DNA from: Planctomycetota bacterium
GTDB lineage: Bacteria; Planctomycetota; Planctomycetia; JALXBF01
NCBI GenBank assembly: GCA_026981825.1
Contig: JALSID010000115.1
Span: forward strand, 4,198 to 68,197
Reading direction: 5' to 3'
DNA length: 64,000 nucleotides
Below, in pieces: positions 16,358 to 62,318 of this stretch (positions are counted from its first letter, which is position 1; each line of letters begins with the position of its first letter). The notes below the pieces were generated by a model. It had not been told where the DNA came from, made no database searches, and saw only the letters and a program-made list of their open reading frames with translations. Made by a program: the position numbers and the translations under genes.

Positions 16358-17652
16358 CGTCTTCCACTCCACAGGTGCTGTCTCGAGAATCGCGTCCGGA
16401 AAACATCTCGCCCAAGCTACTGGCAGAGGACGACGGCGTGGTACATCCAGGGCTGGGAGGCGACCTGTGACGAGGAGCAAGGAGGCTTGGCGGGTGTGCG
16501 CGCGGTATAGCGAGGCCGGACTGGAAACGCCCGCTCAGTTGGTGCAGATGGATGGCCAGCGAGGGGCGCAACAGCGAGGACCTCGGTCGCGTTAGGCATG
16601 GGACGCAAACGGCTTCACGCGCTTTCCCCTCCAGATGGGCCTCCAACCAAGGGCCCCCCCGCACCGGGAGCATGGTTCGAACGGTACCGCTGCACACCGC
16701 TGGCTCGCCCCGACCGCGGTAGCATGAAGCTTCGCGCCGCTGCACGGTACCCCCGTCGCCCCCCACCGTCACCATGGCGTCGATAAACGCCGGGCTTTGG
16801 GCATGGACGACAGGATCCGCCGTGCCCTGCTGAACAGCGAGCAAACAGGCCCAGGGGCTGCTGGCTGCGGAACGTGGCAAGCGAAGAGCGTCATCCTCAT
16901 GATTGCCTAGCCTCGCTCCCTGGCGATCCCTCCGACCACGGTCGAGCGACCTCGCAATTGGACCGGCTCTCGTTCCGCTGAAGCTCGACCGCTTTTCATC
17001 GACCTGGCGCGCCTCAACGCGGCGCCCATGGTATCCCGGGGGCTCCGCGCGGCTTGGGGCGTCTTCCGGGTAACCGAGGGCCCACCGCGGAGTCGCATGT
17101 TCTCGGCCCAGTCGCGCACCGTCGGTGAAAACTGGTTCAGGCGCGAGCCTTGGTCTGCTGGACCGAGAGCCCATCACGCCGGGACGCCGTAGCAAGCTCG
17201 GTGTATCGCCACCCAGGGCGGGCAATTTCGTCAGCCTGTACGCGTATCCAACGATCGACCTTGGCGAAACCTTCATGGCGCGCAGTCCAACTAACCGAAC
17301 ACACTCTGTGCGCCATTCATTCCCCGCGCGCCTCACAGAATCTCGCGACCTGTTGCCCGCGCTGAGCCATCAGCCAGGGCCAGCCCGCCTGACGCGGAAG
17401 GCTTTGGGCGAGGCACCGAGACGTTCGCTGCCAGCACGCAGCTTGCTCTCCTGTGGCTTGGCAGAGCCGAACGATAGCTGCCGCGTTCCCACGCGTCCGC
17501 TCTCGCGCGGCCCGGCTCGGCCATCCGGCTCTGGTCTTGTGCCTGCCCGCTTTGGGGCGCAGCCCGGGGCCGCAGGAGGTGCTGCCAAAATCATCCCCCG
17601 GCAAAGCTAGAAACGCCCTCCCATCGCGGGATTGGCAATCGCGCCCGGTCTG

Positions 17653-33953: not shown

Positions 33954-36900
33954 ATGACGACGCGAACGATGTTTCGAGGCAAAGCACTCTGCACGATTAT
34001 CACCGTCGGCTTGTTCTGCACGATCCTGTGCCCGCAAACCGCCCACGCTGCCGACCGGGTACTGGTGCTGGGCAAGAGCCTGAGCGAACTTTTGCCGGAT
34101 GCATACAGGGCCACCGAGCAAGGCTTGCCTTCCTCGGCCGTCCCCCCTGAGCTGATCGAACAGCACCGCGCTGTGATTGTCGATCTCACTGGTGTTACCC
34201 CCGACCGACTCGACGCGGTCGTTACCCTGGCCCGCCAGTTCGTGCAGGCCGGGAAGGGCTGTGTGTTTGTGGGCGTCGCTCGGGAGCTGTCTCCCCTGTC
34301 CGCCCTCGTCGGCGCTCAGGTCAGCGGCCCGACGGGGGCCTTCAAGGCACGTCTCTGGTTCATCGACACCGGTCACCCTGTCAGCAAGGGGCTGCGTGGA
34401 ACAATATGCCCCCTAAAGAGGATCGAAACAGGGGAGCTCTCCAACGATTGTCGTGCCCTTGTTGCTGCCTACCAGGATGGCGGTCTCCAACCCTACGTCT
34501 GGCTGCGCAGGTTTCCCTCTCGTGGCCGTCTGTTCATCAGCCTTCTGCCGAAAGAGACCTACACGACGCCCGTCTTCCGCGAACTGGTAGCTCGCGCCGT
34601 GCGGTGGGCGACCGGTGATCTCAACCTCGATCGTTCGGTCTTCCGCTACAAGGAGGTCGAAAACATCCCTGTGTACCGACCCGACCGCCGGGTAGAGCGT
34701 CAGACGAAGATGCAACTGCCCCTTCCCGCAGAGCTCTCCATGCAGAGATATGCCCTTCCGGAAGGCCTCCGGCTGCAACTGTTCGCAAGCGAACCCCTCG
34801 TCGTCAAACCGATTTGCATGACCTTCGGTCCACGCGGCCGCCTCTGGGTGGTGGAGTCGGTAGACTATCCGAACAACGTCCTCCCCAACCCCGAACGAAA
34901 CGGTAACGATCGGATCAAGATTCTGGAAGACACGGACGGAGACGGTCGAGCGGACAAAGCCACCATCTTCGCGGACAAGCTCAATATCCCGACCAGCCTT
35001 CTCCACGTCAGAGGTGGTCTGCTCGTTGCCTGCGCCCCCCACATCCTCTTTCTCAAGGACACCGACGGCGACAGGCGTGCCGACGTGCGCCGCATCGTTT
35101 TCACCGGCTTCGGTCGTGCCGACACCCATGCCGTCCACGCCAACTTCCACTACGGGTTCGACAACTGGATCTGGGCCACGGTCGGGTACAGCGGCGGAGA
35201 AATCAAGCTCCACGGCAAGCGGATCAGCTTTCGCCAGGGCGTGTTCCGATTCAAACCGGACGGCAGCGCTTTCGAGTTCGTAGCCCCCACAACAAACAAC
35301 ACGTGGGGACTGGGCTTCAGTCCCGACGGAGATGTGTTCGTCTCCACGGCCAATAACCAACACAGTTTTTACCTGGCCATACCCAACCGCTACTTCGAAC
35401 GGGTGCGGGGCTGGTACGCCACGGGAATCGCCAGAATCGAAGACCACAAGAGATACCACCCAATAGGACCGTACCGTCAGGTGGATTTCCACGGGGGGTT
35501 CACCGCCGCCAGCGGTCACAACTTCTACGGCGATACCCGCCTCTTGCCCATCTACAACAACCGGGCCGCCCTGGTGACAGAGCCGACGGGGCACCTGGTG
35601 CACGTCTGTCTACCGGTTCAGCGGGGCAGCGGTTTCGTTACTCGCGACGGCTACAACCTGGTAGCGAGCGATGACGAATGGGCAGCCCCCATTGCGGCTG
35701 CACCTGGTCCGGACGGTGCCGTCTGGTTCCTGGACTGGTACAACTTCATCGTGCAACACAATCCGACTCCCCCCGGTTTCCGAACCGGCCTCGGAAACGC
35801 CTATGAAACCCCCCTGCGCGACAAAACGCACGGACGCGTGTACCGGGTGGTGGCCGAAGGTGAAGCCCGGCAAGAGCAGCCGAATTTCCCGGATGCCTCC
35901 GATGACGAACTCGTTGCTTTGCTCGGCCACGAAAGCATGTGGTGGAGGCTGCACGCCCAGCAAGAGCTCGTCGAACGAGGCGACCTGTCCGTTGCGCCCA
36001 AGCTGGAATCGTTCGCCCGTGCAAACCGCGACTCGCGCGCGGCGATTCATGTCCTCTGGACTCTACACGGTCTGGGGGTAACCGACGAGCTCGTTCGCGC
36101 GGCCCGGGTGTGTCTGGGCAGCAAGCATCCGGCGGTCCGACGAGCCGCGGTCCAGACGTTGCCGCCTACTCGTGAAACCGTCGGCATCCTGCTCGAAGCC
36201 GGCGCCCTCAGTGATGACGACTTTCGAGTGCGGCTTGCGGTGCTCCTAAAGTTCGCCGATTGCCCCCCGGACGATCGTATCGCCGCCAAACTCGTCGGAG
36301 TTTTCCTTGACGAAAGCGTGGCTCGTGACCGCTGGCTCCCCCTGGCCGCCATCTGCGCGGCTGCCACGAATGACGTCGCTTTCCTGAAAGCCGCATGTAC
36401 GGTGGCTAGAGCGTCGGAACTGCTGGCACGGGCGGTAGAGGTGGTGGCGGAACATTGGAGTCGCGGAGCGCCCGCACCGGAACAATTCCGACAACTCGTT
36501 CGAACGTTGCAGAACGCGTCGGAGCCTGTCTTAAATGCCTTCTGTCAGGGGGTCATCCGTGGCTGGCCAAAAGGTCATGACGCGGGTAACCTCGATGAGT
36601 CGGACCGCCGGCTTGTCCTTCACCTGGTACGCTCCACTCCCCCTGCTGTGCGCCCTGGCCTTGTCCTGCTATTCCGCAGAGTGGGCTGGTCGGCACCCAT
36701 CGGCGAATTCGTCGCCAAGGTGCGGGAAGAATTGCTCCACAGGCTGGACAATCGTAGTCTGCCAACACGTGACCGACTTGAGGCGGCAGAGCGTCTCCTG
36801 AGACTCGATCCCTCCGACGAAACCGTCCGCGCGCTGGTGAGCCGTATCGCGGTTGCCGAACCGCCGGAGTTCAACAAGAGCCTGATCGATTTCCTGGCTC

Positions 36901-38204
36901 GCACGGATAGCCCAGCAGTGGCAAGCGAGCTTCTGCAGCGGTGGCGAACTTACTCGCCCGAACTGCGCCGCCTCGTCGTTCGAACCCTGTTGCAGCGTCC
37001 CGTTTGGGCGAGTCAACTGGTAGCCGCGCTGCGCGCCGGTGTCCTAAACCGCGCCGACCTCACCCTGGACCAACGTCAGCTTCTGCTCGCTCATCCGGAT
37101 CGACACATCCGCGAACAAGCGCAGGCCCTGTTTCAGGGGGCCGTTGTGTCTGCAGGTCGAGAGGACGTCCTGAAGCGGTACCTTCCGCTCGCCGACCGGA
37201 AAGGCAATCCAACGGCAGGTCGGAAAGTGTTCGAGGAGAACTGTGCGAAGTGCCACCGGTTCGAGGAGATCGGTGAGGCGGTGGGCCCGGATCTGACCGG
37301 AGTAGCTGTTCGCGGTCGTCGCGCGATCTTGACGGACATTCTCGACCCAAACCGCTCGGTCGAGGGCAACTTTACCCAGTATCTCGTGCTCACCCGGGAC
37401 GGAAGGGTCTTGACCGGCCTACTTGCTGCCGAGACCCGCACCGCCATCGAGCTTATCGACACAGAAGGAAACCGCGTGATCGTCTTAAGAGAAAACATTG
37501 AAGAGATCACGAATTCCGGCAAGTCGCTCATGCCGGAGGGGTTTGAGCAGCAGCTTAAGCCCGAGCAGATCGTTGATCTGCTCGCCTTCCTGACTCAGCA
37601 ACGACGGTTCGTCCCGATCCCTATCCGGCGTGCTGCCACGATCGTGACGACCCAGGGCATGTTCTACCGCAAGGAGTCCCCCACCGAGCGATTGGTCTTC
37701 AGCGATTGGGGGCCGAAAACGTTTAAGGGAGTCCCGTTCCACCTCGTGGATCCCAAAAGCACGCTTCAGCCGAACGCGATCATGCTGTACAGCCCGAATG
37801 GTGCCGTCAGCCGAGAGATGCCGCGGCGTGCAGAGGTGGAGTGCAATCTGCCTGCCCGGGTTGTCCACATCCTGGGCGGCGTAGCCGGTTGGGGCTACCC
37901 GGCCTCACCCGCGGGTACGACCTCCATGGTCGTCCGGTTTCATTACGCCGACGGTTCCTCCGAGGACCACCGGCTGATCAACGGCGTACACGTCGCCGAC
38001 TACATTCGCGTGGTTGACGTACCCGGATCGGAGCTTGCCTTCGTCCTGCGGGGCAGACAGCTTCGCTACCTCGCGATCGAACCAAAGAAACGGGAAGTTA
38101 TCCGGAAGATCGAGTTTCTGAAAGGCGACGATAATACGGCCCCCATCGTAATGGCGATTACGGTCGAACTGCCCGGCGAAGGACGTGCCAGCTCGGGTAG
38201 CTAG
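33954..38204 (+). CDS. 1416-aa secreted multidomain protein. Domains: ThuA-like N-terminal domain, glucose/sorbosone-dehydrogenase-like beta-propeller ('membrane-bound dehydrogenase domain'), HEAT repeats, c-type heme CxxCH domain, C-terminal domain of unknown function (PVC-type heme-binding protein family)
   Basis: Signal peptide MTTRTMFRGKALCTIITVGLFCTILCPQTAHAA. Propeller-like blocks (DGDGRADK, DGDRRADV, FSPDGDVFVS). HEAT-like repeats (AVRRAAVQTLPP...). A single CAKCHRFEEIGEAVGPDLTG heme-binding motif is followed by LMPEGFEQQLKPEQIVDLLAFL. It is collinear with ORF 57821..61915 through the propeller, HEAT and heme regions. Confidence 0.8.
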   Translation: MTTRTMFRGKALCTIITVGLFCTILCPQTAHAADRVLVLGKSLSELLPDAYRATEQGLPSSAVPPELIEQHRAVIVDLTGVTPDRLDAVVTLARQFVQAGKGCVFVGVARELSPLSALVGAQVSGPTGAFKARLWFIDTGHPVSKGLRGTICPLKRIETGELSNDCRALVAAYQDGGLQPYVWLRRFPSRGRLFISLLPKETYTTPVFRELVARAVRWATGDLNLDRSVFRYKEVENIPVYRPDRRVERQTKMQLPLPAELSMQRYALPEGLRLQLFASEPLVVKPICMTFGPRGRLWVVESVDYPNNVLPNPERNGNDRIKILEDTDGDGRADKATIFADKLNIPTSLLHVRGGLLVACAPHILFLKDTDGDRRADVRRIVFTGFGRADTHAVHANFHYGFDNWIWATVGYSGGEIKLHGKRISFRQGVFRFKPDGSAFEFVAPTTNNTWGLGFSPDGDVFVSTANNQHSFYLAIPNRYFERVRGWYATGIARIEDHKRYHPIGPYRQVDFHGGFTAASGHNFYGDTRLLPIYNNRAALVTEPTGHLVHVCLPVQRGSGFVTRDGYNLVASDDEWAAPIAAAPGPDGAVWFLDWYNFIVQHNPTPPGFRTGLGNAYETPLRDKTHGRVYRVVAEGEARQEQPNFPDASDDELVALLGHESMWWRLHAQQELVERGDLSVAPKLESFARANRDSRAAIHVLWTLHGLGVTDELVRAARVCLGSKHPAVRRAAVQTLPPTRETVGILLEAGALSDDDFRVRLAVLLKFADCPPDDRIAAKLVGVFLDESVARDRWLPLAAICAAATNDVAFLKAACTVARASELLARAVEVVAEHWSRGAPAPEQFRQLVRTLQNASEPVLNAFCQGVIRGWPKGHDAGNLDESDRRLVLHLVRSTPPAVRPGLVLLFRRVGWSAPIGEFVAKVREELLHRLDNRSLPTRDRLEAAERLLRLDPSDETVRALVSRIAVAEPPEFNKSLIDFLARTDSPAVASELLQRWRTYSPELRRLVVRTLLQRPVWASQLVAALRAGVLNRADLTLDQRQLLLAHPDRHIREQAQALFQGAVVSAGREDVLKRYLPLADRKGNPTAGRKVFEENCAKCHRFEEIGEAVGPDLTGVAVRGRRAILTDILDPNRSVEGNFTQYLVLTRDGRVLTGLLAAETRTAIELIDTEGNRVIVLRENIEEITNSGKSLMPEGFEQQLKPEQIVDLLAFLTQQRRFVPIPIRRAATIVTTQGMFYRKESPTERLVFSDWGPKTFKGVPFHLVDPKSTLQPNAIMLYSPNGAVSREMPRRAEVECNLPARVVHILGGVAGWGYPASPAGTTSMVVRFHYADGSSEDHRLINGVHVADYIRVVDVPGSELAFVLRGRQLRYLAIEPKKREVIRKIEFLKGDDNTAPIVMAITVELPGEGRASSGS

Positions 38205-51305: not shown

Positions 51306-51737
51306 CTACCAGCGCCAGATGTCGACCCCTCCGAAGACGTTGGGGCGTGTGCTGAACAGCGGCCGCGCGCCGCGATAGGCATCCTGCCCACCGAAGATGT
51401 TCCTGCGCGTGCTGAATAGCGGACTGCTTCCCCGGTACACGTCGTATCCACGGAAGATGTTCGGCCTGGTGCTGAACAGCGGCCGCACACCCCGGTAGGC
51501 GTCCTGGCCACCAAAAATGTTCCGCCGCGTGCTGTAAAGCAGTCGCCCGCCACGATAAACATCGAAGCCACCAAAGATGTTGGGCCGGGTGCTGTAGAGG
51601 AGACGGCTTCCCTGGTAGACGTCCACCCCGCCGAACACGTTCGGTCGCGAAGATGTGAACTGGGCAAACGACTGTTCCGAGGAGGCAACAAAGAACGCCA
51701 CCGTCAACGCTGCAGGTGCTACCCATCTGGCGAGCAT
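51306..51737 (-). CDS. Small secreted protein (about 143 aa) made of six tandem 18-aa repeats (consensus STRPNIFGGxDVYRGxRLLY)
   Basis: Signal peptide MLARWVAPAALTVAFFVASSEQSFAQ. Then repeats ...SSRPNVFGGVDVYQGSRLLY/STRPNIFGGFDVYRGGRLLY/STRRNIFGGQDAYRGVRPLF/STRPNIFRGYDVYRGSSPLF/STRRNIFGGQDAYRGARPLF/STRPNVFGGVDIWRW. 54-nt periodicity is visible in the DNA at 51320-51660. Confidence 0.6.
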   Translation of the reverse strand: MLARWVAPAALTVAFFVASSEQSFAQFTSSRPNVFGGVDVYQGSRLLYSTRPNIFGGFDVYRGGRLLYSTRRNIFGGQDAYRGVRPLFSTRPNIFRGYDVYRGSSPLFSTRRNIFGGQDAYRGARPLFSTRPNVFGGVDIWRW

Positions 51738-52230
51738 GACTTGCCCTCCACTCTCGCGTGAACCTCGCTTCAAACCGCGCCCAAGACGGGCCCTCTCATT
51801 AGAGCTATACCGGTGACCGGTTGGATTTCGGACACCCGAAACGACCTGGCCTTTCTCAGGAAAAGCCGGCTTGCAACCTCCGCCGAATGCGTTACATTCC
51901 CCACGGCCAGCTCGCGCGCCGTCAGCGTGTGTGCGCGATTATAGCCGAATCCTCAACGGCAGCGCAGACCATCGCACCGCTTCGCCGCAACGGTCCGGTC
52001 CCTCTGGGCGCGGCCAGCCGCGGTCCGGCTACGAGGGTTCTCGCTCTGATGCCCGGCGTGGTCCGGAGCCGGTCTCGACCTACTATCCCGATCTCGCGAC
52101 GAGGACCTTTTCGGCTCGCTGCGGTGCCGTTGACCGATCCGGTCATGGCCAGTAGCCTGGCAGCAACGCAGCTCACGGCAGATCGCCGCTGCAGGAATTC
52201 CCGTTAGGTGAGCGACGAGCAGGAAGCAGT

Positions 52231-53286
52231 ATGGAGACAGGACGACCACGCCGGTTGCATGTGCGGCACGAGGGAAACCGCGAGCACCTTGAGTACGCAC
52301 GGCAGGTGCTCGAAACCGAAGCCGCCGCTCTGCGAACCGTCCGGGATCGGCTGGACGAATCGTTCGCAGCGGCGGTGAATCTTTTGCTCACTTGCAAGGG
52401 ATCGGTCATTGTGACCGGCATGGGGAAAGCCGGCATTGTGGGCCAGAAGCTAGCCGCGACCCTTGCTTCCACCGGTACACGGGCGCATCCGTTGCATCCG
52501 GCCGAAGCGGTGCACGGTGACCTGGGCCGGATCGGTGCCGAGGACATCGTGCTTGCCCTGTCGTACAGTGGCGAAACCGAGGAGGTGGTGCGTCTTGTGG
52601 ATCCTGTGCGGCAGATCGGGGCGAAGCTGATCGCGATCACGGGCCGGGGCCAGTCCACCCTGGCGTGCGCCGCCGACGTAGCGATCGTGCTCGGCCCGCT
52701 CAACGAAGCCTGCCCCCTTGGGCTGGCGCCGAGCACATCCACCACCGCGATGATGGCTGTAGGCGATGCCCTTGCCTTCGCCGTTAGCAAGGCGCGGCGG
52801 TTTGAACCAGAACAGTTCGCCGCGTTTCACCCTGCGGGCAGCCTCGGGAAACTATCCCAGTCGGTTCGAAACCTGATGCGGGTTGGAACTGAGGTGCGGT
52901 TGGCCCACACGGGACGAACCGTGCGCGAGGCGCTGATCGAAGCCCACCGGCCCGGCCGCCGTACCGGCGCAATGCTGATTGTCGACGAACGCGGCGTGCT
53001 GCAGGGCATCTTCACCGATGGCGACCTGGTTCGGCTGCTCGGACGAACCGACCTGGACGATCCGCTTGAGCTTCCGATCGAGCACGTGATGACCAGGAAT
53101 CCGGCGACGATCGGGGAATCGGCCACCGTGCGCGAGGCGGTGGAACGGCTGTCACGGGGGAAGTTCAGCCAGTTGCCCGTTCTCGATGAACACGGCCGCC
53201 CGATAGGCATTCTTGACATCACCGACGTGATCACGCTCATCCCAGACCTGGACCGTGAGCAAGACTCGACGGCCAAAGCTGCCTGA
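52231..53286 (+). CDS. kdsD: Arabinose-5-phosphate isomerase (SIS domain plus tandem CBS domains), KdsD/KpsF/GutQ family
   Basis: SIS motif VIVTGMGKAGIVGQKLAATLASTGT and C-terminal CBS pair; followed 15 nt later by kdsC. Confidence 0.85.
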   Translation: METGRPRRLHVRHEGNREHLEYARQVLETEAAALRTVRDRLDESFAAAVNLLLTCKGSVIVTGMGKAGIVGQKLAATLASTGTRAHPLHPAEAVHGDLGRIGAEDIVLALSYSGETEEVVRLVDPVRQIGAKLIAITGRGQSTLACAADVAIVLGPLNEACPLGLAPSTSTTAMMAVGDALAFAVSKARRFEPEQFAAFHPAGSLGKLSQSVRNLMRVGTEVRLAHTGRTVREALIEAHRPGRRTGAMLIVDERGVLQGIFTDGDLVRLLGRTDLDDPLELPIEHVMTRNPATIGESATVREAVERLSRGKFSQLPVLDEHGRPIGILDITDVITLIPDLDREQDSTAKAA

Positions 53287-53300
53287 ACGGGGACCGACTC

Positions 53301-53834
53301 ATGGCGGCGGACGAGAAGGAACTGCTCGAAAAAGCGCGGGCAATCGAGCTGCTGGTCCTCGACGTGGACGGGGTCTTGACCACAGGCGACATTCTCGTAG
53401 GCGACGACGGCCGCGAGTGGAAACAGTTCTACGTGCGTGACGGGGCCGCTCTGGCCTACTGGCACCGTATGGGCAAGAAGTCCGCGATTCTGAGCGGACG
53501 GATCAGCGAGGCCGTGTACCACCGGGCAGCCGAGCTAGGCGTCCACGAAGTGGTGCAAGGTCGGCTTGACAAGGGACGGGCAGTCGAAGAACTTGCCACA
53601 AGGATGGGCGTACCGCTGGAGCGGGTCTGCTTCATCGGGGATGACCTGGCCGACCTGAGCGCGCTGGCCCGAGTGGGCCTGGCCGCGGCCGTGGCCGATG
53701 CGGTAGCGGAGGTGAAAAGCAAAGCAGATTATGTCACAGAACTGCCGGGAGGGAAAGGAGCAGTCCGGGAACTGGTCGAGTTCCTGCTTCGTACCCAGGG
53801 GGTCTGGGAACAGGTGCTTGAGATCTACGACTAG
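53301..53834 (+). CDS. kdsC: 3-deoxy-D-manno-octulosonate 8-phosphate phosphatase (HAD superfamily, KdsC)
   Basis: HAD motif I LVLDVDGVLTTGD, about 177 aa, typical KdsC size and synteny after kdsD. Confidence 0.8.
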   Translation: MAADEKELLEKARAIELLVLDVDGVLTTGDILVGDDGREWKQFYVRDGAALAYWHRMGKKSAILSGRISEAVYHRAAELGVHEVVQGRLDKGRAVEELATRMGVPLERVCFIGDDLADLSALARVGLAAAVADAVAEVKSKADYVTELPGGKGAVRELVEFLLRTQGVWEQVLEIYD

Positions 53835-53890
53835 GTCACGAGGCCCCACGTACCGCACGTAGGGAAACCATCGAAGGAGTTGCAACTGTC

Positions 53891-56800
53891 GTGGTCCGTC
53901 GCGTCGTCACGGCAGCCATTGCATTCACCGCCCTGATGTTTTTGTACGCCCTCTACCTCGCGGCGTTCCGCCGCTTCTGGGCGCTGCAAAAACTGCCCAC
54001 CGACCTTCTGCCCCCTACGAGCGCACCTCGGTACACGGATCTGGTCAACACCAAGGAAGACATCGCCACCGAGGTGGCCGCAGAGGTCTTCGGTGGTGAC
54101 GCCTGGCAAACGCGGGCAGTGATTAGCCTGTACTGGGCCGAACAGGGGTTCTTTCTGTATGCGAACGAGTACGCGTTCCCGACCAAACAGAGCATGACCC
54201 TGGCACCGGTCAGTGTCGTGCGGAAACGCACGCTCGAGGGGGGTCACGTGGAGTATCTTGTGCTGCAGGCGGAAAAGGCATCGATTACGTTTGATCGGCC
54301 CATCAGCCTAACCGACTTTTCAGCCGCTCGCCCGGTCCGGGCGCAGGCGTCCGGTAACGTGGTCGTCGGCTGGAACCGCGGCACGCCGGACGAAAACGAC
54401 GACGTGACTGCTTATCTGACCGACCTGGTCTTCGACCGCAATCGCAAGCTTGTCTGGACATCGGGCGAGCTCAGGGTGACGAGCGACACGATGTCGCTCA
54501 ACGGCCACGGGGGGCGGATCACGCTCCGCGGCGGGCAAGACGGCCGGCTGGAAGTGGAATCCCTGCAGGTAAGCCGACAAGTACGCGTGGAAGGGCTTCT
54601 CAGCGATCGAAACCGCAGCCTGCTCGTAGCCACCGAAAGAGGTGGCTCGCGTTCCAAACCCAGCAAGGGGGGCAGAGAACAGTATCTGGCGATCGAGTGT
54701 CGTGGGCCACTTGTTCTCGATGCCGCTGGTCTGCAGGCGATCTTCCACAGGGACGTGGTCGTCACGGTTCAAACTCCTGGGCTATCACCTGACGTAGTGC
54801 GAGCCGATGAGCTCCGGCTAGCATTTGCGCGCGTGACCGAACCATCGGAAGGTTCGGCTGCGGCGGTCTCGAACCGGCTTACGTTGAAGCTTGCTGAGGC
54901 GGTCGGTCAGCCGGTGGTGGTCAGTTCCCCCACACGTCGTCTGACGGCCAGCGCGACCAACATGGCCTACGACATGACCACGCGGGTGCTCAGCCTTGAG
55001 TCGCCTTCGGGAGTGCAGGCGTCCTATGGGGCGCTGGACATTCGCGTTGCTCGGCTCAGACTGCAGATTGGCAGCCCAGGCGCGTTGCAGGGGGAAGCCC
55101 CGGGTCCTGGAGAACTGGTGGGAAAAGGGAAAGCGGGCGCGGATTCAGAGGGAATCCGCGCCTCCTGGCAAGAAAGCGCCCGCCTTGAGCTTGTGGACGG
55201 ACGACATGTCGTCACGCTCACGGGCAATGTGCGGGTCGAGCAGCCCGGGCGTGGCGAGATGGTGGCCCAGCGATCGGTCCGGCTCTGGTTCAACGGTTCG
55301 GCGAAGCCTACCGCGGAGAAGAGTTTTTCCCTTCCTGAGCGGATCGAAGCGACCGGCGGTGTGGTTCTCACCTCCGACGATTTGGTCTTGCGCACGGAAC
55401 TCCTGATCGCTCGTTTTACACCGGCCAAACGAAGGGACTCAGACGCCCCCGAAAAAAATTCCCATGAGGACGCGCGTGCCAGCCCCGAGTCTGCGAGTCC
55501 GAGCTTCGTCTTCTGCCAGGACGTGGAACGGGGGCCGGTGATCAGGATCCGGGCCGTTACGCCGGCTGTTTCACCGGCAGATTCCGAAGTACCCCCCGGA
55601 CCGGCCGACGGTACACCGCCTGATGGAGGCGAAGAGCACCACCGGCCCGGCCGCCGGATCGAGATCACAGCGGGCCGCATCCGCGCCGATATCGAGGCCG
55701 GCCCTGAGAAATTCGTAGCTCGCGAAATGTGGGCAGACGAGGCCGTATCAATCGTGGAGCGGCTCTCCGAAGAACAGTCCGGCCTCACCATACACGGCGA
55801 CAATGTACACGCCCGCGGGCTCGACGGTAGCTACTTCTTCGAAATCACCGGCCAGCCTGCCCTGGTGAGCACCGACACCCTGACGCTCCACGGCAAGCTC
55901 ATCGGCCTCGATCAGGCAACGCAGGTCGCCTGGGTACGGGGGGAAGGCAACGCTGTCTTCCGCACCGATGTTGCCCTTTCCCTGGACGAACAGGCCGGCG
56001 GGAACGTGCAGATCGTCTGGTCCCGCGACATGTTCTTCGATGGCCTGGTGGCGGAGTTCACGGGCGCGGTCCGGGTGGAACAGGGTCAGACGGTGCTCAC
56101 CTGCGAGCGGCTCGAGGCGCACTTGAGCGAACGGATCCAGCTCGCACGCCGGCCCCAGCAGGCTGCCCCCCCAATCCTCGCCCGGCTCATCGCCACAGGA
56201 GCAGTAGAACTACGTCGCCAGAGCGATCAGGGCATTACGAGGATCGAAGGCCCCCGCGTCGTCTATTCACGTCAGGACAATAAGATCGTCGTGGCCGGCC
56301 CAGGCCGGTTCTGGTCCAGCGGCAGGGGGTCGCCGGCAGTCCTTCGTCCCGCCGCTCCGCCCCCCCAGGATCCGCGCTGGAAGGGTACTCTGGTGCTGTT
56401 CGATCGGCTCATGGACGTCGACCAGGACAAAGGCCTGGTCCGCTTCGTCGGCCGCGTGCGTGTGTGGCACGCGCCGATCGATGGTCCGGATCGCGAGTTC
56501 TCCCATGCGGCACCACCGTCCGAGGCCATGTTCGTCGGCTGTGACCAACTCGAGCTGCTCACGACCAAAACCACCGGAGTGGCGTCCGTAGGCGAGACGG
56601 GCTCGATCCAGAAGCTCATCGCGCGTGGCAATGCCAAGATCCATGGCCAGGGCTTCTACGCTTACGCCGATGTCCTCAAATACGACACCACGGGCGGCGA
56701 AGAAAAGATCATCGCCGAGGCGAGCGAAACCGGTTTTGCTACCTTCTACCGCCAAACCGTCCCCGGACGCCGCCCCGACGTGCTACGCGCCCGAAAGATC

Positions 56801-56896
56801 ACCTACTGGCCCGTCACGGGGGAGTTCCGCCAGGAAGGTGGCATCATGCTAAATGTCCGGGAAAACGGCCCCCTCCGCCAACGAACCCGCCGCTGA
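53891..56896 (+). CDS. 1001-aa membrane-anchored protein, candidate expanded LptC/LptA (OstA-N-like) lipopolysaccharide transport protein
   Basis: N-terminal TM anchor (VVTAAIAFTALMFLYALYLAAF). Recurrent LptA-like '(T)GNV/GNA...' beta-jellyroll blocks (LTGNVRVEQPG, GEGNAVFRTD, ARGNAKIHGQGFYAYAD). Position immediately after kdsD-kdsC matches the conserved kdsD-kdsC-lptC-lptA order. The family assignment is an inference. Confidence 0.4.
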   Translation: MVRRVVTAAIAFTALMFLYALYLAAFRRFWALQKLPTDLLPPTSAPRYTDLVNTKEDIATEVAAEVFGGDAWQTRAVISLYWAEQGFFLYANEYAFPTKQSMTLAPVSVVRKRTLEGGHVEYLVLQAEKASITFDRPISLTDFSAARPVRAQASGNVVVGWNRGTPDENDDVTAYLTDLVFDRNRKLVWTSGELRVTSDTMSLNGHGGRITLRGGQDGRLEVESLQVSRQVRVEGLLSDRNRSLLVATERGGSRSKPSKGGREQYLAIECRGPLVLDAAGLQAIFHRDVVVTVQTPGLSPDVVRADELRLAFARVTEPSEGSAAAVSNRLTLKLAEAVGQPVVVSSPTRRLTASATNMAYDMTTRVLSLESPSGVQASYGALDIRVARLRLQIGSPGALQGEAPGPGELVGKGKAGADSEGIRASWQESARLELVDGRHVVTLTGNVRVEQPGRGEMVAQRSVRLWFNGSAKPTAEKSFSLPERIEATGGVVLTSDDLVLRTELLIARFTPAKRRDSDAPEKNSHEDARASPESASPSFVFCQDVERGPVIRIRAVTPAVSPADSEVPPGPADGTPPDGGEEHHRPGRRIEITAGRIRADIEAGPEKFVAREMWADEAVSIVERLSEEQSGLTIHGDNVHARGLDGSYFFEITGQPALVSTDTLTLHGKLIGLDQATQVAWVRGEGNAVFRTDVALSLDEQAGGNVQIVWSRDMFFDGLVAEFTGAVRVEQGQTVLTCERLEAHLSERIQLARRPQQAAPPILARLIATGAVELRRQSDQGITRIEGPRVVYSRQDNKIVVAGPGRFWSSGRGSPAVLRPAAPPPQDPRWKGTLVLFDRLMDVDQDKGLVRFVGRVRVWHAPIDGPDREFSHAAPPSEAMFVGCDQLELLTTKTTGVASVGETGSIQKLIARGNAKIHGQGFYAYADVLKYDTTGGEEKIIAEASETGFATFYRQTVPGRRPDVLRARKITYWPVTGEFRQEGGIMLNVRENGPLRQRTRR

Positions 56897-57059
56897 TTCT
56901 GCAAGAGCGTGCTCCATCCGCACAACCCGGTCCCCTGCTTATCAAGTGCCCGTCATCGTCAGCCCAGTACCACTGCGGTGCACGCGCTTTTCGGATAGCC
57001 TCCAACCAGCAGCCCCGGTGAACACCAGATCACCTGGTCGAACCGTTCCGTGGTCGAGG

Positions 57060-57815
57060 TTACTCTGCCTCTCCACCCGGCAGCGGCCGCAGCTCGTTAC
57101 TCCGCAGAGCGAGCACCGTGCTCCTCAGCAAGGCCGCCAATTTCGCGCGCGCCAGGCCGAACAGGTCTTCCACAGGCGCCGAGACTACCTCCCACTGATG
57201 GGGGACACCGATCGCGACCAGCTTGTCATGCAACCGCTCGATCCCCCGGAACCAGGTCGCATCGTCCCGGTTGGCCAGCAGGCTGATCGCAAGAGGCCGG
57301 TTTAGGGGGTTAATCCAGAGCGTTGCGGTCAACTGCCGCGCGCTCTCGACATCCGGAAACACCCGCTGGAGCAGTTCATCCTCCCAATAGCGCTGGTGAA
57401 AATCGATCCAGGGCTGCACGGCAGCAACCCCGGCGAACCGCCGGGGATGGCGGAAGGCGATTCGCAAGGCACCCTGACCGCCCGTGCCAACCCCGCTCAG
57501 CACGACCTGAGCGGGCCGATACCGCTCGTGCAGCCAATCAAAGACGGCTTCGGCCACCCACGCGTCCGGCGTGAGCTGCGCGTCGAATTCTTCCACCTGC
57601 CGGTGGAGCCACCACGTACCCCGGGCCTCCAGCAGAACCACGGGACAGCGCAGTTGCTCAGCTTCCTCCTCGATCAGCTCTGCGCACGCAAACGGCTCGA
57701 ACAAATCGTGCCCCAAACACACAATCGCGGTGTCCCCCACCGCCTGCGGCTTATACACCAGCGTTTGATGGCCGACAACGCGATGCTCCTGCCAGCGATC
57801 GGACGGCACGTGCAC
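57060..57815 (-). CDS. Esterase D / 'putative esterase' family alpha/beta-hydrolase homolog with the nucleophile Ser replaced by Gly (GVGTGG in place of GHSMGG)
   Basis: LSGVGTGGQGALRIAFRHPRRFAGVAAVQP aligns to the esterase-D consensus ..AGHSMGGHGAL.IAL.NP..F..V.A..P with a Ser-to-Gly change. It starts 5 nt after the stop of the upstream giant gene, on the same strand. Confidence 0.55.
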   Translation of the reverse strand: MHVPSDRWQEHRVVGHQTLVYKPQAVGDTAIVCLGHDLFEPFACAELIEEEAEQLRCPVVLLEARGTWWLHRQVEEFDAQLTPDAWVAEAVFDWLHERYRPAQVVLSGVGTGGQGALRIAFRHPRRFAGVAAVQPWIDFHQRYWEDELLQRVFPDVESARQLTATLWINPLNRPLAISLLANRDDATWFRGIERLHDKLVAIGVPHQWEVVSAPVEDLFGLARAKLAALLRSTVLALRSNELRPLPGGEAE

Positions 57816-57820
57816 CTCCT

Positions 57821-60800
57821 TTACTGACCACCAGCAGTCTGGGCCGCAGAATCGCCCAGCAAACGAACCTTGAGGTTACGTATTCGCACCGCAAATCCGT
57901 CGTCGCTCCTGATCTCGAATCCGACGGCGCCGCGCAACCGAGCCGCGGGATCGTCATGCTCACGCAGCACTTTCCCATCCCGGTACAGCGTTAGCCGCGA
58001 ACCCTGAGCAACGAGCCGCACGGCCCCGGACCTCGCCCCCGTCAGCCCGGCGGATGGCAGGAGAATGCCGCGCCCCCCACGCTCCAGGACCGCTCCAGAG
58101 CGCGGCCCTGTCAGAGGAATCTGGTAGCCAACGAGTTTGCCGTCGGTTCCAAACCCACACCGGAACAGAACCGAGAACTCTCCCGCTCCATCGACCTCAT
58201 AATCGAAGGAAAGCTCGAAATCCTCAAACTCGAATTCCGAAAGGATGACCGTACTGCCCCCGTTGAGCCGCCCCTCCAGCGTTCCGTTCTCGGCGCGCCA
58301 GGTCGGGCCGGTCACGAGCCAGTAGGTAAGATCGGTTCCCGAGAAGAACAGCGAGATGTTGCCCGGTCGGGCGAGGATCGGGGTCTGCCGGGGACTGGCG
58401 AGATACGCGAAGAGGGAACGCACCTCATGGGGCGTGAGTTGTTCCAGCAGGTTGTCGGGCATCATCGACTGCTCCGATTGCCGCATCGCCTCGATCTCGT
58501 CCCTGGCCAACGTCAGTTGCTCGTCGGCAGTCTGGACCACCAGGTACCGGTCCGTTTGCTGACGTACGATACCGGTAATGACTCGACCGTCGGCGGTCGC
58601 AATGATGTGCGGGATGTAGTCATTGGCCATGACCGCAGAGGGGTCGAGCACGTTGGAAAGAGCGTAGTCGAGGTCGGCCCGGTTGGAACCGGTCAAATCT
58701 GGCCCCACGTGCCCGCCCTTACCGAACAACGTGTGACATTGGGCACAGATCTTTTGGAACACAGCGCGTCCCAGGGCCACATCTGGGGCGGGAAGGTCGG
58801 TCCTTTCGATCAGCTTGCGGTAGCGTTCGATCAGCGCCTGCTTCTCTGCGTCGCTTCGCCGCACATGCCCCCAAACTTTTTCGATGCGTTTTCGAAGGTT
58901 GTCGTCGGACACATTGACAAGCTGCCGAATGAGATCAGCAGTGAGGTCGGTTCGGGGCACCGTTCCATGAGCCACCGCGTCGAGCAACTTCGCCGCCCAC
59001 TCGCGTCTGGTACTGAGCACCGCCAGTGTCGCTCGCTTTTCGAGGGGGCGAAGCTTGGGATAGCGATCCAGTAGGATCTTCGGCAAGACGGGATCCGCCA
59101 CGGCAGCGGCCCCCCGAATCGCCCGGCTCGTCAGAGCTTCGCTGTCCCGACCATCGGTCAGGACGCGCACGATCTCGACCAGAGCCGGATCGTGCACCTG
59201 GATGAGCGCATCGAGGGCTCGCATTCGGCTCGGTTGAGGGGCTGAACGATCCAGGACGACGTCACGCAGGGAACGCAAGGCCGCTTTATCGCCAAAGCGA
59301 ACGCTTAAGCCGACCACCGCATCACGCACCCGGGCATCGGGGCTGCGCATCAGCCGAACCGCAACCTGGGCCCATCCTGCCGGCGGAGCGATTTTCCTTT
59401 TCCCTTTCAACGCCGTTTCGAAGGCCGCCAGGATCTCGAGTTGTTCTTCCACCGACTTCGAACTGCCCAATGTGTTCGTGAGCAGCTCCAGAGCCTCAGC
59501 CGTACCCAGATCGCCAACCCGACGGAACGTGAAGCGTCGCACCAACCGAATGGCGCCTTTCCGCGCCACCTGGATCGCCCGGGGGGGATCGGACGCCACC
59601 AGGGGTTCAAAAGCGTACCAGTACATGTACGGCAGGTTGTGATCGGTGTTGTCCTCCGCATGAGCCAGCAGCCTTCGCAGAACTTCCCACCGCTGCGACA
59701 GGTCGGTCCGCTGCATGGCGGAGGCCAGGTAGAGCCGCACAATGGGTGAGGGGTCATGGGCAGCAAGATCGGGCAGCCGCTGGACCAGCTCCGAAGGGGG
59801 GGAATCCTCAAAACCGAGCTGAATGGCCCAGGCGCGGACGTACTCGTTCTTGTCTTCCAACATGCGGGTGAGGTCGCTAGGACGGAGCGCGTTGCAGACG
59901 TGCAGGGCCCACGCCGCACGCAGCCGGTGCCGTGGATCCGGAGCCGTCGCCAGGCTCTTCCGCAACAGCTCGATCGCGTCGGCGCTCACCCCGCCGGAGG
60001 CTGCCCGCTCCTGAAGGAGCCGCCTGGCCACGCGCACGTACCAGTCGTTCGGATGATGTTGCAGCCTGGCAAGCTCAACATCGCTCAGTCTGGCCAGGTC
60101 CAGCTTGCCCGACCGATACTGCTGCAGCAACCGCGCGTACAAGGAATCGGTTGGACGGGCCTGCCGATCTTGACCGCTGTCCCGATACACGATCTTGTAC
60201 ACCCGCCCGTTCGATCGGTCGTGCACTCGGGGGTCGGTCCGGTGGCACTGGTTACGGTCGTACCAGTCGATGACAAAGACCTGTCCGTCTGGTCCGTACC
60301 GCAGGTAGAGCATTTGCGACCAGTAATCGCCCGTGATCAGGAAATCCGGCCCGTGATGGCCGACGAACCCGGAGCCGCGGCGTTCGAGGATGTCCATATT
60401 GGTTCGTGCTCCGTGGATGTTGTTCATGAACAGCTTGCCGCGGTACTGCGCGGGCCAGGCGTCGCCCAGGTAGACCATGGCGCCGGCATGAGCGTGGCCA
60501 CCCCCGGCTGCTACAGTGTCTGCCGGAGTGATCGGGGTGTGGCCCCAGTGAGCGTGTTCCTGTATGGCCCCCTTGTAGTGGAGATGGTCGGCGATGGTCT
60601 TGATGTCGTCGTAGACGTAGGGATTGAAATGCTGCCCCGCCTGTCTCTGGTACCTGCCCCCTTGGATTACATGGTACAAGTGGGGGATCACGCATGCGGT
60701 GATGAATGCCTGGCCGAAGTCGTCGAAGTCCACACCCCAGGGGTTACTCGTCCCGTAGGCAAACACTTCGAAACGCTTCTTGACCGGATGGTACCGCCAG

Positions 60801-61915
60801 ACGCCCGCATTAATCCGCACACGCTGCTCATCCGGTGTGCCCGGTTTTCCCACCCGCGAATGGGTGAAGACGCCGTGACATCCGTACAGCCAACCGTCCG
60901 GGCCCCAAATGAACGAGTTCAGTGTCTCGTGTGTGTCCTGATAGCCCCAGCCGTCCAAGACAACCTCCGGTGGCCCATCCGGACGGTCGTCTCGGTCTCG
61001 ATCGGGGATGAACAACAGATAGGGTGCGGCGCCCACCCATACCCCACCGAAGCCGACCTCGATACCGCTAACCAGGTTGAGCCCGGTGCAGAAGATTTTG
61101 CGGCGGTCCATCCTCCCATCGCCGTCCGTGTCCTCGAAAATCAGGATCCGGTCCTTCCCCTTACCCTCCGGCTGGCGAACGGGGTAGGTGTACGCCTCCA
61201 CCACCCACAGGCGGCCGCGTTCGTCGATGGTCATGGCGATCGGTTGGCGCACATCCGGTTCGGCGGCAAAGACGCGCACCTCGAACCCAGGGGGAAGCTG
61301 CATGACCCGGGCTGCCTCTTCTGCTTTCAGGCCCTGGTACGGGAACGGGTTGTCGGCACGGGCTTGGATTTTTGGGGGGGCATCGTGGAGACGGAAGTCA
61401 TCGAAGTTGATGTGGCCCCAATGGCCCGAGTGTTGATCGATTACGCGGACAAACGCCACTTTGCCCAGGTGCTTGCGCAGATCGACGACAACCCGGCGCA
61501 TGTCCTCGCGGTCCTGACCGGACGCCTGGAACAAGACCGTTCCATCAGCGAGAACCACTTCCACGCGGGTCTCCTTGTGATGGCCGCCCCCCACCAGAAA
61601 GCTCGCCCAGGGTTTCGTAATCCGAAACGGGCTGGAGACGAGTACGCCAGTGGGGGCGTCACCCCCCACCTCGTACGTCCCGATCCAGTACTGGCCCTGA
61701 TGTCTGCTGTGCATATCCTGCCGCCTACGGTGGACGGTGTCCCCCCGAACAGGCTGACCACGAAACGCTTCTCCTTCGGCGCGCCAGTCACGAAGGTCAC
61801 CGGTCTCGAAATCCAGGTTCAGTGGCCGACCGTCCAGACCGACCGGCAGATCACCATCGGAACCGGACCGAGCGGCCAGACCGGCGAGAAGAAGAGCAGC
61901 TACCAGGCGGAGCAT
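57821..61915 (-). CDS. 1364-aa secreted multidomain protein (paralog of 33954..38204). Domains: N-terminal ConA-like/DUF1080-like jelly roll, glucose/sorbosone-dehydrogenase-like beta-propeller, HEAT repeats, c-type heme CxxCH domain, C-terminal DUF1080 (3-keto-disaccharide-hydrolase-like) domain
   Basis: Start MLRLVAALLLAGLAARSG (ATG 61913-61915; the listed ORF begins 36 codons earlier with no signal peptide). Heme motif CAQCHTLFGKGGHVGPDLTG...LMPDNLLEQLTPHEVRSLFAYL is collinear with CAKCHRFEEIGEAVGPDLTG...LMPEGFEQQLKPEQIVDLLAFL in the other copy. Propeller blocks (FEDTDGDGRMD, PDRDRDDRPD) and HEAT repeats are present. C-terminus WRAENGTLEG...DFELSFDYEV...VLFR is DUF1080-like. Confidence 0.8.
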   Translation of the reverse strand: MLRLVAALLLAGLAARSGSDGDLPVGLDGRPLNLDFETGDLRDWRAEGEAFRGQPVRGDTVHRRRQDMHSRHQGQYWIGTYEVGGDAPTGVLVSSPFRITKPWASFLVGGGHHKETRVEVVLADGTVLFQASGQDREDMRRVVVDLRKHLGKVAFVRVIDQHSGHWGHINFDDFRLHDAPPKIQARADNPFPYQGLKAEEAARVMQLPPGFEVRVFAAEPDVRQPIAMTIDERGRLWVVEAYTYPVRQPEGKGKDRILIFEDTDGDGRMDRRKIFCTGLNLVSGIEVGFGGVWVGAAPYLLFIPDRDRDDRPDGPPEVVLDGWGYQDTHETLNSFIWGPDGWLYGCHGVFTHSRVGKPGTPDEQRVRINAGVWRYHPVKKRFEVFAYGTSNPWGVDFDDFGQAFITACVIPHLYHVIQGGRYQRQAGQHFNPYVYDDIKTIADHLHYKGAIQEHAHWGHTPITPADTVAAGGGHAHAGAMVYLGDAWPAQYRGKLFMNNIHGARTNMDILERRGSGFVGHHGPDFLITGDYWSQMLYLRYGPDGQVFVIDWYDRNQCHRTDPRVHDRSNGRVYKIVYRDSGQDRQARPTDSLYARLLQQYRSGKLDLARLSDVELARLQHHPNDWYVRVARRLLQERAASGGVSADAIELLRKSLATAPDPRHRLRAAWALHVCNALRPSDLTRMLEDKNEYVRAWAIQLGFEDSPPSELVQRLPDLAAHDPSPIVRLYLASAMQRTDLSQRWEVLRRLLAHAEDNTDHNLPYMYWYAFEPLVASDPPRAIQVARKGAIRLVRRFTFRRVGDLGTAEALELLTNTLGSSKSVEEQLEILAAFETALKGKRKIAPPAGWAQVAVRLMRSPDARVRDAVVGLSVRFGDKAALRSLRDVVLDRSAPQPSRMRALDALIQVHDPALVEIVRVLTDGRDSEALTSRAIRGAAAVADPVLPKILLDRYPKLRPLEKRATLAVLSTRREWAAKLLDAVAHGTVPRTDLTADLIRQLVNVSDDNLRKRIEKVWGHVRRSDAEKQALIERYRKLIERTDLPAPDVALGRAVFQKICAQCHTLFGKGGHVGPDLTGSNRADLDYALSNVLDPSAVMANDYIPHIIATADGRVITGIVRQQTDRYLVVQTADEQLTLARDEIEAMRQSEQSMMPDNLLEQLTPHEVRSLFAYLASPRQTPILARPGNISLFFSGTDLTYWLVTGPTWRAENGTLEGRLNGGSTVILSEFEFEDFELSFDYEVDGAGEFSVLFRCGFGTDGKLVGYQIPLTGPRSGAVLERGGRGILLPSAGLTGARSGAVRLVAQGSRLTLYRDGKVLREHDDPAARLRGAVGFEIRSDDGFAVRIRNLKVRLLGDSAAQTAGGQ

Positions 61916-62318
61916 CGACTTACCCCCGCATGCGTTGTTCGCGAAACACAGGATGTTCGAACTTAATTCTAAACTCGGCTCGGGGCTGTGCCCCCGAATA
62001 ACCTGCAAGACCCCTGGCATCACGACGCTTCCTTACAGCTCCATGCCGATCGGCTCACGCGGTACGGTCAGCGCCGCCGGCCGGTGACATGTTTGCCCGC
62101 ACCGCGGAGCCCGGTGCACATCGAGGCGTGCCACCCTTTGGGTTGGCGGGCCCCCCATGCCCAGACGTCTGGCCTGAGCTGGTTCGTGTTGGAACCACAT
62201 ATCTTCCGTGCCCGCGCCCGGCACTTCCTCTCCCACCAAGAGGCGTCACTGAAGAGATGCCGGTCGGTGCACGATTAGGTATCCTTTGAATCGGACCCAC
62301 CCGCCGGAGGAGAAGGAG

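Follow-up and report, generated by a model that had tools for sequence, protein, structure and literature searches.

Bridges built from Lpt beta-jellyrolls, and fusions of several OstA domains, are already known. In Escherichia coli, the estimate for the transport of lipopolysaccharide (LPS) is that the periplasm is spanned by four OstA domains, and fusions of up to four such domains, predicted in many genomes, have been taken as support for a jellyroll-to-jellyroll bridge (PMC3944529, a review). The same review makes clear that the number of LptA units in E. coli, and whether they form a continuous head-to-tail array or not, are still argued. The gene order of E. coli MG1655, which was checked here, is yrbG-kdsD-kdsC-lptC-lptA-lptB-rpoN. 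Within Planctomycetota, Speth et al. (2012) examined LptD alone, and the canonical Lpt set of Planctomycetes has been described as 'largely reduced' (PMC8871954). Here we describe a locus in the window, by which we mean the whole stretch of 64,000 nucleotides (nt) from contig JALSID010000115.1 of a Planctomycetota bacterium, in which one gene, encoding a protein of 1001 amino acids (aa), follows kdsD and kdsC. Our results indicate that this giant protein belongs to the OstA/LptA/LptC superfamily and is probably a periplasmic LPS bridge in which LptC and LptA are covalently joined, with about six modules split by a variable Pro/Ala-rich linker. The genes and sites concerned are the following; Kdo stands for 3-deoxy-D-manno-octulosonic acid, an LPS sugar in whose synthesis kdsD and kdsC take part.

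52231..53286, + strand: kdsD-like gene, KpsF/GutQ/KdsD-family arabinose-5-phosphate isomerase, 351 aa, SIS and two CBS domains, TIGR00393
53301..53834, + strand: kdsC-like gene, Kdo-8-phosphate phosphatase, HAD-IIIA, 177 aa, TIGR01670
53874..53879, + strand: Shine-Dalgarno-like AAGGAG, read from the sequence; the giant gene starts 11 nt later with GTG
53891..56896, + strand: giant gene, membrane-anchored multi-module Lpt (OstA/LptA/LptC-superfamily) protein, 1001 aa
53903..53968, + strand: predicted N-terminal transmembrane anchor of the giant protein, about aa 5-26, N-in/C-out, from hydropathy, flank charge, conservation and AlphaFold2 (AF2)

An earlier note, made from the sequence of this stretch, had read positions 52231-56896 as kdsD and kdsC followed by a membrane-anchored 1001-aa protein with several OstA-like GNV blocks, which would occupy the lptC/lptA slot as a fused or expanded LPS bridge. 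The three open reading frames (ORFs) are indeed there, all on the + strand, with spacings of 14 nt and then 56 nt. The kdsD-like protein scores 253.4 bits against TIGR00393 (KpsF/GutQ; cut-off 203.7) and matches Pfam PF01380 (SIS) and PF00571 (CBS). It falls short of the strict KdsD equivalog NF008141 (252.5 against 505) and likewise misses the GutQ equivalog cut-off, and the gene is therefore named as a KdsD-family arabinose-5-phosphate isomerase. The kdsC-like protein passes TIGR01670 (KdsC) with 150.3 bits over a cut-off of 106.95. The window DNA also matches an 89.7-kb metagenome-assembled contig, ENA ERZ27262642.

The giant gene starts with GTG at 53891, a start supported by close homologues (including P0002 and P0003), which open with the same MVRR/MIRR. 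A scan of 51700-57200 for promoters and terminators gave no signal above shuffled expectation. The most hydrophobic 19-residue stretch of the protein lies at aa 5-23 (hydropathy 2.14, against a maximum of 1.16 elsewhere), AF2 places a helix at aa 2-30, and an N-terminal hydrophobic segment is present in 94% of the family members. In 151 relatives the net charge is +2.0 before this segment (N side) and -1.2 behind it (C side); the bias is N-side-positive in 146 of the 151, which argues for an N-in topology with the bulk of the protein outside. The anchor seen by the earlier note is thus conserved across relatives. Tyr residues at positions 19 and 22, within the helix, are at least 80% conserved; this would fit a retained anchor helix better than a cleaved signal peptide, cleavage not being formally excluded.

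Homology to Lpt proteins is detected at the sequence level. PF03968 (LptD_N/OstA), one of the two hidden Markov models (HMMs) against which the earlier note proposed to check its domain call, matches the giant protein at aa 721-809, scoring 33.9 bits where the gathering score is 20.4. It is the sole Pfam match above threshold, and no unrelated domain surfaced that would have spoken against an OstA/LptC assignment. The same model matches 44 of 45 diverse family members at E ≤ 0.01, the best E value being 6.8e-17. Several members are labelled LptA in the annotation of the Joint Genome Institute (JGI); others are 'hypothetical'. When profiles of single segments of the protein were compared with the individual E. 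coli LptC and LptA sequences, the probability did not exceed 47%. The families AsmA, AsmA_2, DUF490/TamB and DUF748 gave no match in the 45 members (E ≤ 0.01) or in the giant protein (E ≤ 1), and membership of the AsmA/TamB group was rejected on the basis that no such Pfam family appeared among the matches of the 45 members.

The internal structure of the protein was analysed with an alignment of 160 relatives, from which sub-profiles were compared with HHalign. It can be divided into six modules and a linker.

54140..54610, + strand: module S1, aa 84-240, the first beta-jellyroll, resembling LptC in its position and predicted fold
54674..55135, + strand: module S2, aa 262-415, with the invariant GPG 405-407 at its end, related to other modules by HHalign, predicted local distance difference test (pLDDT) 80-94
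55148..55429, + strand: module S3, aa 420-513, shorter, LptA-type G-N/G-V motifs at 443 and 487
55430..55648, + strand: disordered Pro/Ala-rich linker, aa 514-586, between the homologous halves, pLDDT 25-34
55649..56002, + strand: module S4, aa 587-704, all-beta in the model, pLDDT 72-91
56003..56374, + strand: module S5, aa 705-828, the Pfam LptD_N segment, invariant W710, G718 and GPG 803-805
56375..56845, + strand: module S6, aa 829-985, conserved C-terminal module, candidate LptD docking end

In a Pfam scan of the six pieces taken separately, S5 alone reaches threshold, so the repeats are demonstrated through profile-profile comparison. HHalign relates S2 to S5 with a probability of 96.6%, to S6 with 96.7% and to S4 with 87%; S5 and S6 are related at 87%, S3 and S6 at 71% and S3 and S5 at 57%. 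The probability of S1 against any other module is at most 19%. The N-half (aa 84-513) aligns with the C-half (aa 587-985) over 297 columns (96.4%, E 1.2e-9), and high-scoring out-of-register alternatives are found as well, a pattern that points to a tandem array plus the duplication of a three-module unit. At the level of single modules, S5 matches LptA sequences in the PDB (E 0.002), S2 matches LptA faintly (profile positions 354-412), S3 gives a sub-threshold PF03968 score of 12.1 bits, and aa 937-972 of S6 are highly conserved.

The GNV blocks of the earlier note were recovered by the motif x-x-G-[NGQAR]-[VAP]-x-[VIL], which occurs at aa 153, 337, 443, 487, 652, 702, 723, 768, 852 and 911. 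These make ten LptA-type strand motifs, plus two variants, in the giant protein, against two (FTGNVIV and LTGNAYL) in E. coli LptA. Taken together, this count and the 826 residues of beta structure indicate about six LptA equivalents. An invariant Gly-Pro-Gly is present in all aligned relatives at equivalent sites of both halves, aa 405-407 (55103-55111) and aa 803-805 (56297-56305), and may represent a conserved turn where two modules meet.

Across the family the linker varies from 14 to 137 aa (median 56), is composed of 21% Pro and 19% Ala, and shows low alignment occupancy. Its constant presence between halves that are homologous over about 300 columns might suggest that LPS is carried in another geometry, with the halves lying side by side and the linker running back, to form a double or closed conduit whose length, three modules, would be that of an ordinary periplasm. 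Such an arrangement seems most improbable to us, given that some linkers, of 14 aa, are too short to run back along three modules and that known Lpt modules join head-to-tail (PMC3944529).

The predicted structure is in agreement with the sequence homology. A full-length AF2 model, built from an 8-sequence alignment (mean pLDDT 71, predicted template modelling score (pTM) 0.53), shows nearly continuous beta strands from aa 87 to aa 982, with disorder at 514-586; a separate model of aa 1-262 is weaker (pLDDT 60). The consecutive antiparallel strands of a beta-jellyroll fold are thus predicted for the giant protein. The earlier note had suggested a count of jellyroll repeats by structure prediction; the extent of predicted beta structure, together with the profile comparisons and the strand motifs, gives approximately six modules. 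In a Foldseek search of the PDB, the top match of the full-length model is full-length LptD (E 1e-7), and the target TM-score is 0.73 to LptA and 0.67 to LptC. The bridge-like lipid transfer protein LPD-3 (9cap_A) is also matched, with E 4e-6. Foldseek matches to RHS, teneurin and TonB-receptor structures were discarded for low probability or low TM-score. Of the structural matches listed below with the values obtained for each, LptD, LptH/LptA and LptC are the best.

LptD: 14.3, 176, 3.0 A
LptH: 13.7, 125 of 143, 2.3 A
LptC: 12.4, 155 of 174, 4.4 A
LptA: 11.8, 119 of 135, 2.1 A
LptF/LptG: 7-7.8, 100-108, 23-42 A

The model of aa 1-262 has full-length LptC structures as its best matches, followed by LptH, LptD, LptC and LptA. 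S1, whose similarity to LptC is not detectable in the sequence, is therefore predicted to be an Lpt jellyroll placed behind a membrane helix, as in LptC. A rod of such length, built of modules and a flexible Pro/Ala linker, could also be a structural tether or spacer, which fixes or senses the distance from the inner membrane to the outer membrane or peptidoglycan with repurposed jellyrolls and moves no lipid. We regard this as very unlikely: MORN matches reflect a generic likeness of long antiparallel hairpin sheets while the top structural matches are all Lpt proteins, conservation runs along the whole beta region with the LptA-type motifs included, and the gene is linked in an operon to LPS precursor synthesis.

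The family is large. An exhaustive HMMER search over 1.84 billion cluster representatives gave 4,016 matches at E ≤ 1e-3 and 1,605 at E ≤ 1e-30, counted as 50%-identity clusters, whereas a word-indexed homologue search returned only 8 relatives. Nearly all of the best 150 HMMER matches are full-length, with 990-1200 aa, and total length in the family ranges from 984 to 1209 aa. The median identity to the window protein is 24%, and conservation spans the whole beta region except the central linker. The closest named relative, from a metagenome-assembled genome (MAG) labelled 'Planctomycetota bacterium', is 45% identical; other named members come from Gemmatales and from Aeoliella (Pirellulales). 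No description of the family was found in the openly accessible literature on Planctomycetes and LptA. The combination of an anchor with about six modules in duplicated halves, a central disordered linker, ubiquity in Planctomycetia and fixed linkage to Kdo genes is therefore apparently new, as no earlier description was found.

The linkage to Kdo genes was studied in metagenome contigs, which were scanned for the conserved W..M.FDG..A.F...V motif of the giant gene, written as a degenerate DNA pattern. The scan gave 119 loci, every one with a family member; clustering at 90% identity yields 103 groups, and clustering at 50% yields 51. The order kdsD-kdsC-giant gene was present in every related locus examined first in which the upstream region is visible. 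A KdsD homologue lies on the same strand within 1.5 kb upstream of the giant gene in 54 of 56 loci, and KdsC lies directly upstream in 52 of 70, with three more at 420-500 bp. In about a dozen loci (L012, L021, L022, L023, L033, L039, L046, L051, L056, L088, L103, L110 and L117) kdsD abuts the giant gene without kdsC, and L037 and L095 have neither gene upstream; the linkage of kdsC is thus looser than that of kdsD. The occupation of the E. coli lptC/lptA slot by one giant gene, which the earlier note described for this stretch, is the norm for a large planctomycete family and not a peculiarity of the window.

Downstream of the giant gene, the next two genes of the window lie on the opposite strand.

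57060..57815, - strand: esterase-like gene, convergent, not an Lpt component, PF00756 24.8 bits
57821..62023, - strand: DUF7133/HEAT/cytochrome c protein, about 1400 aa

In 24 of 79 related loci, a homologue of the esterase-like gene lies no more than 1.5 kb downstream, in convergent orientation, and clustering of the ORFs in the flanks (related loci L010-L128) found it in 31 loci. The same clustering showed a phosphoribosyltransferase-like gene downstream in 38 loci and a class II fructose-bisphosphate aldolase-like gene upstream in 17. None of these recurrent neighbours is an envelope gene. In a distant relative (P0008, locus L007), the gene after the giant gene (13617-14492) has a prepilin-type N_methyl motif by a weak Pfam match, and it is absent in the other loci examined.

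Several observations weigh against the proposal that the giant protein is an LptC-plus-LptA bridge. Its score against the LptA equivalog TIGR03002, 25.3 bits, is far short of the cut-off of 71.7. The LptC model PF06835, the second model named in the earlier note, has no match in the whole protein (E ≤ 1) or in its six segments (E ≤ 10) and is matched in one of the 45 relatives (E 2e-6), and the family profile of S1 retrieves no LptC among PDB sequences. The number of modules is only approximate, since S3 and S4 are short, and the disordered linker breaks the chain midway along the supposed groove. The AF2 models are of moderate confidence and derive from only 7-8 sequences. The lptB gene that the earlier note looked for immediately downstream is not there, and an LptB-like ATPase is found within 2.5 kb downstream of the giant gene in none of 79 related loci. 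Pfam scans of 19 other large ORFs of the 64-kb window revealed no lptF, lptG, lptD or lptE, so that physical linkage to the remaining Lpt machine is lacking.

The constant absence of lptB from the 79 neighbourhoods would also be expected if the Lpt fold served another cargo, as an inner-membrane-anchored groove for phospholipids, lipoproteins or planctomycete-specific lipids, comparable in action to the AsmA-like, TamB and YhdP bridges or to the Lpt homologues of Borrelia, with LPS handled by a separate small LptC and LptA. AsmA-like proteins have an N-terminal anchor and then a beta groove of about 1000 aa. The overall architecture of the giant protein is AsmA-like, and the LPD-3 match points in the same direction. 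Moreover, in Borrelia, which is free of LPS, Lpt homologues are reported to move lipoproteins or to link the membranes. We nevertheless consider another cargo unlikely, because among the conserved neighbours only the Kdo genes kdsD and kdsC (54 of 56 loci) point to a pathway, and the sequence homology is to OstA/LptA and not to AsmA/TamB. Flank clustering, in addition, reveals no conserved alternative partner gene. The Kdo linkage and the OstA homology also count against a role as a tether.

Another point to be weighed against the proposed bridge is that only 64-90 kb of the genome is visible, and canonical lptC and lptA genes may lie elsewhere. In that case, the giant protein could be a paralogue that acts as an auxiliary or alternative bridge in places or at times of a wide periplasm, such as at invaginations or in certain growth conditions. 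The wide variation of the linker and of total length suggests adaptation to geometry, which would suit such a role. This explanation appears distinctly unlikely to us, given that the giant gene, and not a small lptC or lptA, fills the ancestral slot after kdsC family-wide, that no E. coli-like LptA or LptC is found in any flank of the 119 loci, and that the survey of Planctomycetes detected only a reduced Lpt set (PMC8871954).

On balance, we favour the LptC-plus-LptA bridge. The fused or expanded architecture in the earlier note is supported by the Lpt homology, the repeats, the anchor and the position after kdsD-kdsC; the LPS-bridge function that it attached to this architecture is what we infer from them. 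The giant protein would be bitopic in the inner membrane, with a short cytoplasmic N-terminus, one helix and about six periplasmic Lpt-type beta-jellyrolls, arranged as two homologous three-module halves joined by the variable Pro/Ala-rich linker. The giant gene, in the position of E. coli lptC-lptA, would be co-expressed with kdsD and kdsC. The helix and S1 might substitute for LptC at an LptB2FG extractor encoded elsewhere, while the later modules would stand in for the non-covalent LptA oligomer and offer an unbroken hydrophobic groove for the LPS that is pushed along it. The conserved S6 could dock edge-to-edge onto the N-terminal jellyroll of LptD. As for the linker, we speculate that it loops out while the halves dock head-to-tail like separate LptA molecules, or that it gives slack.

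The periplasm of Planctomycetota is much enlarged, wide and variable. If four OstA domains correspond to the span in E. coli, six modules would reach about 1.5 times as far, before LptF/G and LptD are counted, a reach that would fit such a periplasm. It may be, although we consider it somewhat less likely than not, that in Planctomycetia a single covalent chain of about six jellyrolls, anchored in the inner membrane, has taken over from separate LptC and oligomeric LptA and constitutes the whole LPS bridge, with the fixed number of modules and the extensible linker acting as a periplasm ruler or as slack. LptC and LptA that are missing from surveys of Planctomycetes may be hidden within this family of about 1000 aa, which would explain the 'largely reduced' set.

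If this reading of the whole bridge is correct, nature itself would answer, with a single chain, the old question of the number and order of the Lpt modules in a bridge. An LptC-like anchor and about five further Lpt modules in one widespread polypeptide would have a defined stoichiometry and order, and could be expressed, imaged and mutated. It would also be relevant to the way in which an LPS outer membrane is built across the enlarged periplasm of Planctomycetota. The family, which is now annotated as 'hypothetical protein' or plain 'LptA', merits a model of its own.

Other features of the window were observed. Divergent from kdsD, at 51306-51773 (- strand), lies an ORF of 155 aa whose N-terminus resembles a signal peptide and which contains about six 20-aa repeats in tandem, of the form STRPNIFGGxDVYRGxRxLY. 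Its DNA array has a period of 60 nt with 3.8 copies, or of 120 nt with 2.2 copies. The ORF matches no Pfam family, and the gene called at this place in L001 (143 aa) is likewise without a Pfam match. Two paralogous giant proteins of about 1400 aa each are encoded at 33954-38204 (+ strand) and at 57821-62023 (- strand). One carries DUF7133, HEAT, cytochrome c and ThuA, and the other, by the L001 gene call, DUF7133, HEAT_2 (faint), cytochrome c (faint) and 3keto-disac_hyd. They are typical planctomycete content, unrelated to the Lpt gene. The first 18 kb (3315-17336) contain six ORFs of 248-353 aa without a Pfam family at E ≤ 0.001.

3315-4226: ORF without Pfam family
4975-5721: ORF without Pfam family
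5783-6565: ORF without Pfam family
9075-9956: ORF without Pfam family
11394-12398: ORF without Pfam family
16275-17336: ORF without Pfam family

In comparison with known systems, the giant protein resembles E. coli LptC, the bitopic inner-membrane subunit of LptB2FGC, in having an N-terminal N-in transmembrane helix followed by a periplasmic beta-jellyroll, in the location of its gene directly after kdsC, and in the predicted structure of aa 1-262, for which full-length LptC is the best match. It differs from LptC, a protein of 191 aa with one module, in its length and number of modules, in the absence of a PF06835 match and of LptC sequence similarity in the S1 profile, and in having no lptB nearby. 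With LptA/LptH (PF03968, TIGR03002) it shares the superfamily by HMM, the G-N-V strand motifs and the genomic slot; proteins of this superfamily hold the lipid A moiety of LPS in a hydrophobic groove. However, LptA is a small (about 185 aa), secreted, soluble periplasmic protein with a cleaved signal peptide, which forms a non-covalent oligomer, whereas the modules of the 1001-aa giant protein are covalently joined and anchored to the membrane by a helix that resembles a retained anchor. Unlike LptD's N-terminal domain, it has no C-terminal 26-strand barrel and possesses an inner-membrane anchor instead of an outer-membrane location.

The predicted multi-OstA fusions, with no more than four domains (PMC3944529), differ from a protein that has about six modules, an LptC-like anchor, a duplication in two halves and a central disordered linker, and that represents a very large planctomycete family with a fixed linkage to kdsD-kdsC. 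An Lpt jellyroll gene after kdsD-kdsC is shared with the E. coli kdsD-kdsC-lptC-lptA-lptB operon; the immediate downstream lptB is not. Finally, AsmA-like proteins (TamB, YhdP, YdbH) and the eukaryotic bridge-like lipid transfer proteins are alike in outline, each being one N-terminally anchored chain of about 1000 aa with a long beta groove across the intermembrane space. The AsmA-like proteins belong to another superfamily, while the repeats of the giant protein are Lpt jellyrolls and its gene is linked to those for Kdo.

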